Shown: positions 3,363 through 4,656 of the stretch, piece by piece
Numbering within the stretch: the stretch's first letter is position 1
Layout of the letters: each line of letters begins with the position of its first letter
NCBI GenBank assembly: GCA_023430945.1
Contig: JAEYYE010000391.1
Span: forward strand, 1 to 36,163
Direction: 5' to 3'
Length of the DNA: 36,163 bases
From: Bacteroidota bacterium
GTDB lineage: Bacteria > Bacteroidota > Bacteroidia > Flavobacteriales_F > PHOS-HE28
The notes under the pieces: model-generated
Databases searched by the model: none
What the model was told of the DNA's origin: nothing
What the model saw: the letters and a program-made list of their open reading frames with translations, nothing else
Program-made: the position numbers and the translations under genes

Positions 3363-3415
3363 GTAAAATTACTCACTACAATGAGTAATTTTACTCACTA
3401 CATTGAGTAAATTTG
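3363..3415. repeat. Array of four TTACTCA / TGAGTAA half-sites forming two hairpin-capable inverted repeats, between divergent gene starts
   Basis: The half-sites are TTACTCA (3369-3375), TGAGTAA (3382-3388), TTACTCA (3391-3397) and TGAGTAA (3404-3410). AAAATTACTCA-CTACAA-TGAGTAATTTT (3365-3392) is a perfect 11-bp-arm inverted repeat. Nt 3363-3397 recur at 4622-4656 (33/35 identical). Confidence 0.85.
3408..3415 (+). promoter_or_regulatory. Possible Bacteroidota -7 promoter element (TAnnTTTG) for the ATPase gene
   Basis: TAAATTTG matches the TAnnTTTG consensus. It ends 4 nt before the ATG at 3420, which would imply a leaderless or near-leaderless mRNA. I see no convincing -33 TTG. Confidence 0.25.
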
Positions 3416-3419
3416 TTCC

Positions 3420-4613
3420 ATGGCCTACCAACGCCCCCAGTACTCGATCCTTCGGAAACGCCTGTCCGGGCCGCGTGGTTTCATCCAGGTGGTGGCCGGT
3501 CCGCGGCAGGTGGGCAAGAGCACCCTGGTGGCCCAGGTACTCAAGGACCTGGCCCTGCCCACCCACAGCGTGAGCGCCGATGATCCCGCTGCGCAGAACG
3601 CAGCATGGGTGGCCGCGCAATGGGACCGGGCGCGCCTGTTGGCCCAGGAGGACAAGCGCCGGGGCGCGGTGCTCGTGATCGATGAGATCCAGAAGGTGCC
3701 GCAATGGAGCGACATCGTGAAGGCGAAATGGGACCAGGACGGCCATGACAAGCTTCGCCTGAAGGTCGTGCTACTGGGTTCCTCGCCCTTGTTGATGCAG
3801 CAGGGGCTCACCGAAAGCCTGGCCGGGCGTTTCGAGCTTGTGCGCTTGCAGCAATGGTCGTATACGGAGATGAAGGAGGCTTTCGGTTGGGACATCAATA
3901 AGTACCTGTTCCTGGGTGGCTACCCCGGTGCTGCACGGCTCGTACGCGAACCCGCACGCTGGCGGGCGTACGTGCGCGATGCACTGATCGAGACCAGCAT
4001 CGCGCGGGACGTGTTGCAGATGACACGCGTGGACAAACCAGCCTTGCTCCGTCGTGTGTTCGAGTTGGGGTGCAGCTACAGCGGCCAGGAACTGAGCTAC
4101 ACCAAGATGCTCGGACAGCTGCAGGATGCCGGCAACACTGTGACCCTGAGCTGGTACGGAGAGTTGTTGAGCTCCGTTGGACTATTGACACCCCTATACA
4201 AATACGCCGGGCAGCGTGTACGCCAGCGGGCCAGCAGCCCTAAATGGATGGTGCACGACACCGCCTTGCTCACCGCTCCCATGGGCATTACGCCTGCACA
4301 GGCCCGGAAGGACGGCACCCTTTGGGGGCGCATCACGGAAAGTGCGGCGGGTGCGCACCTGTTGCACGGAGCACGCGATGATGGCTATGAGGTTTATTAC
4401 TGGCGGGATGGTGATCATGAGGTCGACTTCGTGGTGAAGCGCGGGGACAAGATCACCGCCTTGGAGGTGAAGAGCGGGAAACCTCGCGGATCCTACACCG
4501 GCATGAACGCGTTCCAGGCCGCGTTCAAACCCCACCGCATGCTGGTCATCGGCGAGGATGGGATACGCATAGAGGAGTTCCTTGCCAGGCCGGCCGTGAA
4601 GATACTTGCGTGA
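3420..4613 (+). CDS. AAA+ ATPase with C-terminal DUF4143 / PD-(D/E)xK nuclease-like domain (COG1373 type)
   Basis: 397 aa with Walker A GPRQVGKST and Walker B VLVIDEIQ. The C-terminal YYWRDGDHEVDFVVKRGDKITALEVKSG fits a D...E-x-K restriction-endonuclease-like core. GC is visibly higher and GATC much rarer than in neighbouring genes. Confidence 0.8.
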   Translation: MAYQRPQYSILRKRLSGPRGFIQVVAGPRQVGKSTLVAQVLKDLALPTHSVSADDPAAQNAAWVAAQWDRARLLAQEDKRRGAVLVIDEIQKVPQWSDIVKAKWDQDGHDKLRLKVVLLGSSPLLMQQGLTESLAGRFELVRLQQWSYTEMKEAFGWDINKYLFLGGYPGAARLVREPARWRAYVRDALIETSIARDVLQMTRVDKPALLRRVFELGCSYSGQELSYTKMLGQLQDAGNTVTLSWYGELLSSVGLLTPLYKYAGQRVRQRASSPKWMVHDTALLTAPMGITPAQARKDGTLWGRITESAAGAHLLHGARDDGYEVYYWRDGDHEVDFVVKRGDKITALEVKSGKPRGSYTGMNAFQAAFKPHRMLVIGEDGIRIEEFLARPAVKILA

Positions 4614-4618
4614 TCTGA

Positions 4619-4656
4619 TGAGTAAAATTACTCAATGCAATGAGTAATTTTACTCA
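4619..4656. repeat. Perfect 16-bp-arm inverted repeat (6-nt loop) made of the same TGAGTAA / TTACTCA half-sites; possible bidirectional terminator between convergent genes
   Basis: TGAGTAAAATTACTCA-ATGCAA-TGAGTAATTTTACTCA, where the right arm is the exact reverse complement of the left. Nt 4622-4656 is a direct repeat of 3363-3397. Confidence 0.85.

Follow-up and report, generated by a model that had tools for sequence, protein, structure and literature searches.

Examples of arrangements in which tandem palindromes overlap the promoter of a mobile, potentially toxic gene are the C-boxes read by the C proteins of restriction-modification systems and the operators of autoregulated type II toxin-antitoxin modules. 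Orc1/Cdc6 with the origin recognition box (ORB) repeats and DnaA with the DnaA boxes likewise have their sites next to their own genes, and in repetitive extragenic palindromic (REP) sequences with their REP-associated tyrosine transposases (RAYT), as in integron attC sites, genes are flanked by hairpin-forming repeats of which solo copies exist. Features of all of these meet in the stretch of DNA considered here, the 36,163 nt of contig JAEYYE010000391.1 from the Bacteroidota assembly GCA_023430945.1, called the window throughout. It carries a gene for an AAA+ ATPase joined to a PD-(D/E)xK nuclease domain, a member of the family known as COG1373 or PDC-S01, which is bracketed by two arrays of a short inverted-repeat motif. 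Comparison with several hundred further loci indicates that these arrays are probably the built-in promoter-operator of the PDC-S01 gene, bound by the gene's own product.

PDC-S01, the 'phage defence candidate', single-gene 01, was picked out by genomic embedding and ranked as the fourth most common defence call in prokaryotes in a 2026 survey, with about 29,000 bacterial and 10,000 archaeal copies; like most such candidates, it still awaits validation of anti-phage activity (PMC12988326). The PD-(D/E)XK superfamily includes its DUF4143 domain, which is listed there as being of unknown function (PMC3424549). The window protein shares with the family the domain pair of an ATPase fused to PD-(D/E)xK, the patchy distribution and the extensive horizontal transfer; a cis element of the family is the part that was not found described. 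The literature searched on DUF4143, COG1373 and PDC-S01, and Rfam, yielded no description of a conserved upstream dyad array, and nothing relevant was found in literature naming the heptamers TTACTCA or TGAGTAA.

The 397-residue protein matches two Pfam profiles above their gathering cutoffs, AAA_14 (E = 3.6e-23, 82.4 bits, cutoff 27) and DUF4143 (E = 4.1e-26, 92.1 bits, cutoff 28.1), and the PADLOC model for PDC-S01 (PDLC04791, E = 9.7e-172) over its full length, with residues 1-394 on profile positions 1-392 of 395. The Walker A residues G27-K33-(S/T), the Walker B pair D88-E89 and the nuclease residues E334, D336, E349 and K351 are invariant in 36 homologs. The preliminary description of this locus, made from the sequence alone, had recognised a Walker A/B ATPase with a C-terminal nuclease-like motif, and the profile matches and invariant residues confirm it. 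In the AlphaFold2 (AF2) model, whose mean predicted local distance difference test (pLDDT) score is 77.5, an AAA+ module (residues 1-190) is followed by three helices and a beta-hairpin (about 205-280) and by the nuclease domain (299-377). The middle segment is predicted to be a typical winged helix, with residues 233-246 (QLQDAGNTVTLSWY) as turn and recognition helix, and residues 221-240 form the best-conserved 20-residue block of the family. Searches with the protein found no match in PDB, NCBIfam or PHROGs, and a Foldseek search with the AF2 model gave generic AAA+ proteins alone (RFC, ORC, Vps4, RuvB; template modelling (TM) score about 0.3), uninformative on function. By its profile matches, the product is an ordinary member of PDC-S01/COG1373, with nothing in the protein to set it apart, and hence only a candidate for phage protection.

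The arrays are built from TTACTCA/TGAGTAA half-sites, and their coordinates are given with the other features in Table 1. The preliminary description had reported two 35-bp repeats (nt 3363-3397 and 4622-4656) with four half-sites per array and a perfect 16+6+16 palindrome downstream of the gene. All of this holds on recomputing: the repeats are identical at 33 of 35 positions (94%), with both mismatches inside the 6-nt spacer. The upstream array ends 9 nt 5' of the ATG and the palindrome begins 5 nt past the stop codon. The dyad TTACTCA-N6-TGAGTAA occurs three times in the window (at 3369, 3391 and 4628) against 0.02 expected, and eight of the nine TTACTCA/TGAGTAA heptamers (1.4 expected) fall within the two arrays; by these counts the repeat is not dispersed across the window. 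An Rfam E-value search of positions 2400-5300 gave no family for the arrays, only chance-level microRNA matches (E = 1.8-7), and a gathering-score search of the whole window had no match for the arrays and nothing above threshold. The repeat structure around the gene is real and non-random.

The association of array and gene extends far beyond the window. Homologs of 74-96% amino-acid identity, obtained first by exact-protein look-up, lie in four unrelated contexts: the same speA-thioesterase locus (96%), next to an interrupted ABC-transporter operon (83%), near a MarR/RND operon (77%) and beside a DNA-alkylation repair gene (74%). All have the same double dyad 9-12 nt before the ATG, and homology between the nucleotide sequences of these loci sets in precisely where the array starts, which argues that the array travels with the gene. 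A sample drawn by motif alone (the exact double dyad, 28 specified bases, one genome per species) came from at least 120 species genomes, the matches listed belonging to Bacteroidota, Actinomycetota, Pseudomonadota, Bacillota, Spirochaetota, Chlamydiota, Planctomycetota, Acidobacteriota, Verrucomicrobiota and other phyla. A homolog of 45-60% amino-acid identity starts 1-116 nt downstream of the double dyad in 88 of the 120 matches listed; the rest are arrays at contig ends with the homolog's first codons, short pseudogene stubs and solo arrays. A search of other genomes, proposed in the preliminary description, thus ties the array to this gene family.

A complementary sample was drawn by protein similarity alone from metagenomes and comprised 80 loci, 72 with enough upstream sequence. 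A dyad (at most 2 mismatches of 14) stands next to the start in 51 of the 72, and in about 12 more it overlaps a start codon called too far upstream, which brings the total to about 63; after the stop it was seen in 3 of 66. Whether homologous COG1373 genes are flanked in the same way, as had been asked, can therefore be answered with mostly yes for the upstream side and mostly no for the downstream side. Pairs of units that are 92-99% identical in nucleotide sequence and sit in unrelated flanks share the stretch from the -35 element or array (-45 to -115) to about 10 nt past the stop, and it is therefore promoter-operator plus open reading frame (ORF) that moves or is exchanged as a unit. No other gene travels with the unit.

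The position of the array is that of an operator. Many loci read cTTGACAa-TTACTCA-N6-TGAGTAAAT-TTACTCA-N6-TGAGTAA-...-GGAGG-N-ATG. In such sigma-70-type loci a consensus -35 element, TTGACA, sits directly against the first half-site. At a distance of 17-18 nt from this -35 element comes a -10-like TAAAT(T), within TGAGTAAAT and inside the second half-site, and a ribosome-binding site and the ATG follow; the second dyad would cover the expected transcription start. A position-specific promoter logo retained only 32 sequences after filtering and is illustrative. Promoters of Bacteroidetes have a -7 box with the consensus TAnnTTTG, and a match to it overlaps the last upstream half-site in the window. 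Every member examined of the clade to which the window gene belongs (Flavobacteriales-type, at least 74% amino-acid identity, 10 distinct loci) keeps this box 6-9 nt before the ATG, as TAAATTTG in L002, L004 and L005 and as TACTTTTG in L006, and its closeness to the ATG in the window suggests a leaderless or near-leaderless mRNA. Half-sites placed on core promoter elements in this manner are the classic layout of a putative repressor operator. The earlier statement that the upstream copy cannot simply be a terminator was right; this array lies at or before the likely transcription start.

What reads the array is suggested by the way half-sites and proteins change together. Sub-lineages keep the 7-6-7-2-7 geometry with altered half-sites: CTCGTAA/TTACGAG in clade B, TGAGCAA-GA-CTACTCA-N6-TGAGTAG in type C, TTGTTCA/TGAACAA on the Coxiella burnetii plasmid pQpDG and TTACTAG/CTAGTAA on Thermus oshimai pTHEOS01. 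When 118 proteins with TGAGTAA-type sites were set against seven from clade B, A237R was the only column conserved within both groups and different between them, and residue 237 lies in the 'QDAGNTTT' turn just before the predicted recognition helix. R237 is also present in the Thermus protein, whose half-site is CTAGTAA. As Thermus and clade B are not sisters, each being nearest to A237 proteins, the exchange arose twice independently with CTnGTAA sites, and both times it accompanies a TG to CT change at the outer bases of the half-site. For type C no winged-helix position passed the filter; only Y327W did. Distant paralogs of about 25% identity encoded on the same contigs have quite different tandem palindromes, so a host factor as the reader is unlikely. 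The co-variation is modest evidence that points specifically to self-recognition, and the reader of the array is most likely the gene's own product.

The paralog palindromes lie just upstream of their genes, at 5960-6010 in L024 and at about 430-630 in L116, and read GTAAATATGTCGA..TCGACATATTTAC and, in tandem, TTAGGATT-NN-AATCCTAA; self-operators may be general in this superfamily. The members on pQpDG (L227, 19127-20362) and pTHEOS01 (L228) are annotated only as 'ATP-binding protein', and the annotated start on pQpDG lies upstream of the array and was probably mis-called.

Table 1. Coordinates of the features discussed, on the forward strand of the window
Feature	Position	Strand	Remarks
Gene for AAA+ ATPase / winged helix / PD-(D/E)xK nuclease, 397 aa	3420..4613	+	Pfam AAA_14 and DUF4143; COG1373; PADLOC PDC-S01
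Upstream array, proposed operator	3369..3410	.	Two tandem TTACTCA-N6-TGAGTAA dyads (3369-3388, 3391-3410), 22-bp period
Match to the Bacteroidetes -7 promoter box (TAnnTTTG), TAAATTTG	3406..3413	+	Overlaps the last half-site; ends 6 nt before the ATG
Downstream array, proposed second operator, possibly also transcript 3'-end hairpin	4619..4656	.	TGAGTAA-AA-TTACTCA-N6-TGAGTAA-TT-TTACTCA
Walker A P-loop G27-T35, GPRQVGKST	3498..3524	+	Invariant in 36 homologs
Predicted winged helix-turn-helix, about residues 205-280	4032..4259	+	AF2 secondary structure H-H-H-beta-beta
PD-(D/E)xK nuclease core motif E334-V-D336 ... E349-V-K351	4419..4472	+	Invariant alignment columns
Variable segment, Flavo-1-like repeat to thioesterase gene	2699..4686	.	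Holds the DUF5615/DUF433 pair and the PDC-S01 unit; context only

Taken together, it may be proposed that dimers of the PDC-S01 protein use the winged helix to bind the dyads and in this way repress transcription of the PDC-S01 gene, so that little of a potentially toxic nuclease would be made. Promoter-operator and ORF would then together measure about 1.27 kb, a compact unit that has passed between bacterial phyla by horizontal transfer and that, in the window, would have landed in a variable toxin-antitoxin/defence hotspot between speA and the thioesterase gene. Like C-box control and toxin-antitoxin operators, the element travels with the gene of a potentially toxic nuclease or toxin, and operator and reader co-evolve. 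Unlike them, PDC-S01 has no separate small regulator, the reader appearing to be a domain of the ATPase-nuclease; its operator is conserved base for base across phyla, and one clade has a copy after the stop codon. The likeness to Orc1/Cdc6 and DnaA, AAA+ proteins with a winged helix and repeated dyad sites beside their own genes, ends where PDC-S01 carries a nuclease domain, has its array on promoter elements, occurs as units at arbitrary chromosomal places and shows no sign of acting as a replication origin; ORC subunits are among the top fold matches, with a TM score of only about 0.3 that generic AAA+ proteins reach equally.

Several observations weigh against this proposal. In about 20 of the 120 listed genome matches the array stands alone, with no gene beside it, and the gene is likewise missing from more than 120 array-bearing phage contigs; simple autoregulation does not account for this partly independent existence of the array. 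The winged-helix part of the AF2 model is of low confidence, with pLDDT around 40 for residues 190-243, and the co-variation rests on one residue and two events. The window's promoter was assigned from the Bacteroidetes consensus. A sigma-70 consensus scan of the intergenic region gave no promoter, as is expected for a Bacteroidota host, and was judged uninformative. The preliminary description had offered an operator array as one of three explanations, read either by the adjacent DUF433 protein or by the ATPase-nuclease. In our assessment the correct explanation is among the three, and of its two candidate readers the ATPase-nuclease stands, on the family-wide association, the promoter position and the co-variation, and the DUF433 protein falls.

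The gene was described earlier as more GC-rich and GATC-poor than its neighbours and as apparently recently acquired, and the figures agree. Its GC content is 62.5% against 56.0% for the window, and its GC content at third codon positions (GC3, 0.78) is inside the host range (speA 0.83, thioesterase 0.79), so that the excess comes from codon positions 1 and 2. It has 8 GATC sites, or 1 per 149 bp, whereas the window as a whole has 776, or 1 per 47 bp, a density 5.7 times the base-composition expectation, and the 1.2-kb segments dominated by the gene have the fewest of all (9 and 11 against 14-41 elsewhere). As GC3 is not unusual, the GATC depletion is the clearer foreign signal. The commonest GATC context in the window is CGATCG (122 copies), and most of the sites inside genes have their first base at codon position 3 (NNG ATC); the relative L216 is also GATC-rich, with 1 site per 60 bp.

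Comparison with that relative supports acquisition as well. L216 shares speA (90% nucleotide identity) and the thioesterase gene (80%) with the window, and between the thioesterase gene and a Flavo-1-like repeat that the two have in common it holds a different cargo of 0.7 kb with small toxin-antitoxin-like genes; neither PDC-S01 nor a single TTACTCA/TGAGTAA heptamer was found in its 16.5 kb, though with other cargo present it is not a clean empty site. The PDC-S01 unit is present in the closer relatives L002, L218 and L219, where its downstream array has five half-sites. The speA-thioesterase site thus appears to be a small variable hotspot, the unit having been gained in one sub-lineage or lost in L216. 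In the window the divergent neighbours of the PDC-S01 gene are DUF5615/DUF433 genes, a toxin-antitoxin-like pair (2725-3284, reverse strand). Compared with the pair in L002 (3761-4326), the DUF433 antitoxin-like protein is 85.5% identical and the DUF5615/PIN-like partner only 43%, and it looks as though the toxin gene has been replaced in a DUF433-DUF5615 pair that is conserved apart from this. The Flavo-1-like intergenic repeat, of about 110 bp, marks the left edge of the variable segment. It occurs in the window at 2590-2698 (+) and about 7988-8060 (-), in L216 (96% identical to the window copy) and in L004 at 5150-5280; its match to the Rfam family Flavo-1, at 30.9 bits (E = 7e-4), stays below the gathering score of 42.

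It is against this background that one has to weigh the idea, raised in the preliminary description, that the arrays are the ends of a small insertion/excision cassette, either att-like sites or target-site duplications, recombined by the nuclease or a host enzyme. Near-identical direct repeats do bracket the gene in several contexts of the window clade, the edges of near-identical units are sharp where their flanks are unrelated, the family moves readily between genomes, solo arrays could be excision scars, and one phage contig (L393) shows a 22-bp deletion between half-sites. Across the family, however, the array is one-sided, and the sharply bounded units outside the window clade end at the stop codon, with no 3' repeat. 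The same 35-bp sequence in different genomes cannot be a target-site duplication, and the array coincides with promoter elements. No integrase, transposase or recombinase travels with the unit in the contexts examined, although a nuclease-based activity of the protein itself may still be at work. A single-copy empty site, which the preliminary description had named as the sign of insertion, was not seen: L216 lacks any copy of the motif, but holds different cargo, so that the comparison is a weak test. Target-site duplications and att sites were rejected on the family-wide one-sidedness together with the L216 comparison, and a cassette of this kind is improbable. Similar differences separate the unit from REP/RAYT and integron attC elements: it has no tyrosine/HUH transposase or integrase, its repeat is not dispersed in the window, and in most members the array lies upstream only, on the promoter.

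The copy after the stop codon is a peculiarity of the window clade. It is present in 7 of the 10 distinct loci, in at least four contexts, and its half-sites are intact despite about 25% amino-acid divergence, which argues for selection on it. The three members lacking it have extra upstream arrays instead, two more in L004 and at least five dyads in L139 and L140, where at least five consecutive 22-bp dyad units precede the gene and indicate that arrays can expand. Outside the clade, a few downstream arrays head decayed second units: in L061 a stub ORF (MYNHPVLKL-stop) comes after the array, and in L090 the gene 3' end, a terminator hairpin and a three-half-site array make up a 220-bp module that is tandemly repeated downstream. 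The downstream array looks like a second operator copy. It probably descends from the operator of a second unit in tandem, or from a duplication, and selection would have kept it as an auxiliary operator, through looping or as a roadblock, and/or as a transcript 3'-end hairpin. In L004 (GCA_038257435.1) an ABC-transporter ATPase gene (5413-5601) is interrupted some 58 codons into its reading frame by an element about 165 bp long (5585-5747), whose 19-bp terminal inverted repeats match at 18 of 19 positions (ATACCAATTCGCAATAGAA / TTCTATTGCGAAATGGTAT) and which looks like a miniature inverted-repeat transposable element. It lies directly upstream of two PDC-S01 arrays and the gene, and a third, solo array follows a permease stop codon at 5098-5139; the rest of the interrupted ABC-transporter gene was not found downstream of the unit, where the contig ends.

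The possible hairpin of the downstream array raises the question of whether the arrays act as RNA or single-stranded DNA structures altogether, with the downstream one terminating transcription or stabilising the 3' ends of the two convergent genes and the upstream one forming a 5' structure. Folded as RNA, 4619-4656 reaches -27.4 kcal/mol (z = -6.2) on either strand, and it sits between two convergent stops; at that position such a role would be compatible with an operator. Yet the stems are invariant across phyla and the loops vary, so that sequence rather than shape seems to be recognised, and half-site changes are accompanied by a change of protein residue. The AT-rich stem has no T-run (U-tract in RNA) and a terminator scan makes no call there, no Rfam family covers the arrays, and the upstream array, as noted above, lies at or before the likely transcription start. 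A general function as hairpins is accordingly an unlikely account of the arrays.

The arrays in phages open another side of the element. The exact four-half-site array occurs in 7 IMG/VR contigs and a three-half-site form in at least 120 (loci L220-L226, L229-L344 and L376-L455). None of the 123 array-bearing viral contigs among the matches listed encodes a type-A homolog, each has one array, and their median GC is 34%; no winged-helix homolog was found in the array-bearing phages, and type-A PDC-S01 genes are almost absent from IMG/VR, with only three contigs. In about 50 contigs the array adjoins terminase genes, between terS and terL where both were found, and among cultured phages those of Flavobacterium and Bacteroides have the nearest terL genes, with about 35% identity. 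The phage group was also sampled by terL alone, regardless of the array. In a lineage of Bacteroidota-type phages whose terL is at least 99% identical, 38 of 39 contigs have one exact array of three or four half-sites, 37 of them 170-300 nt and one 770 nt upstream of terL; the lone exception is L393, whose deletion left one half-site. In sister phages with terL 94-98% identical, 0 of 31 contigs have it. Recombination around the array has shuffled at least five different sequence modules on its left and four on its right in carriers that are nearly identical. The phage arrays thus appear to be an accessory, recently acquired element at a recombination-prone spot. In L223 an extra ORF for 162 aa (5040-5528) stands right after the array, between terS and terL; from its N-terminal sequence we would guess it to be GIY-YIG/T5orf172-like, and if so, the terS-terL intergenic spot would be a landing site for selfish genes.

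How the phage arrays relate to the host gene allows several proposals. They might interact with host PDC-S01, a possibility we regard as rather unlikely. As a trigger or target, replicating phage DNA would titrate the autorepressor and/or nucleate the ATPase-nuclease; as a decoy, the array would have been acquired by the phage as an anti-defence element. If either were true, the local mosaicism of the phages could result from cleavage at the array. The phage arrays may also be a merely borrowed regulatory module.

The third explanation in the preliminary description, a pre-existing hairpin element that served as the target of a homing-like insertion of the gene, could draw on the solo arrays in genomes and phages, on the shuffling of modules on either side of the array in one phage lineage and on the unpaired TTACTCA half-site that ends the downstream array in the window, L002, L137 and L138. 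Nevertheless, gene-bearing alleles keep complete arrays, whereas classical homing splits its site, and in most units the only complete array is the upstream one. The relative L216, which lacks the gene, also lacks the array, so that this explanation finds no support at this locus, and homology between units starts exactly at the array, that is, the array moves with the gene; a homing target is therefore very improbable. Binding of the array by the antitoxin-like DUF433 protein or by a universal host factor, suggested by the divergent intergenic region that the upstream array shares with the DUF433-DUF5615 operon, is hardly credible: DUF433/DUF5615 homologs were found only in L001-L003, the window's locus type, among more than 200 loci fetched, so that DUF433 was rejected as the binder, while more than 150 loci combine the array with the ATPase gene. 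Operator variants also follow the lineage of the ATPase, and same-contig paralogs differ in their palindromes, which speaks against a host factor.

On this evidence, the bracketed gene is best explained as an acquired and apparently self-regulated defence-candidate unit, and not as a new kind of mobile element. The class of mechanism is ordinary; what is new is the motif, its base-for-base conservation across phyla and its presence in phages without the gene. An operator apparently read by the protein's own winged helix would provide a defined DNA ligand for the biochemistry and structure of PDC-S01, with residue 237 as a candidate specificity residue. Tight autorepression would also be a likely reason for the silence of PDC-S01 in heterologous screens. 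Finally, the same element in phages that lack the gene makes the question of what PDC-S01 senses a testable one.

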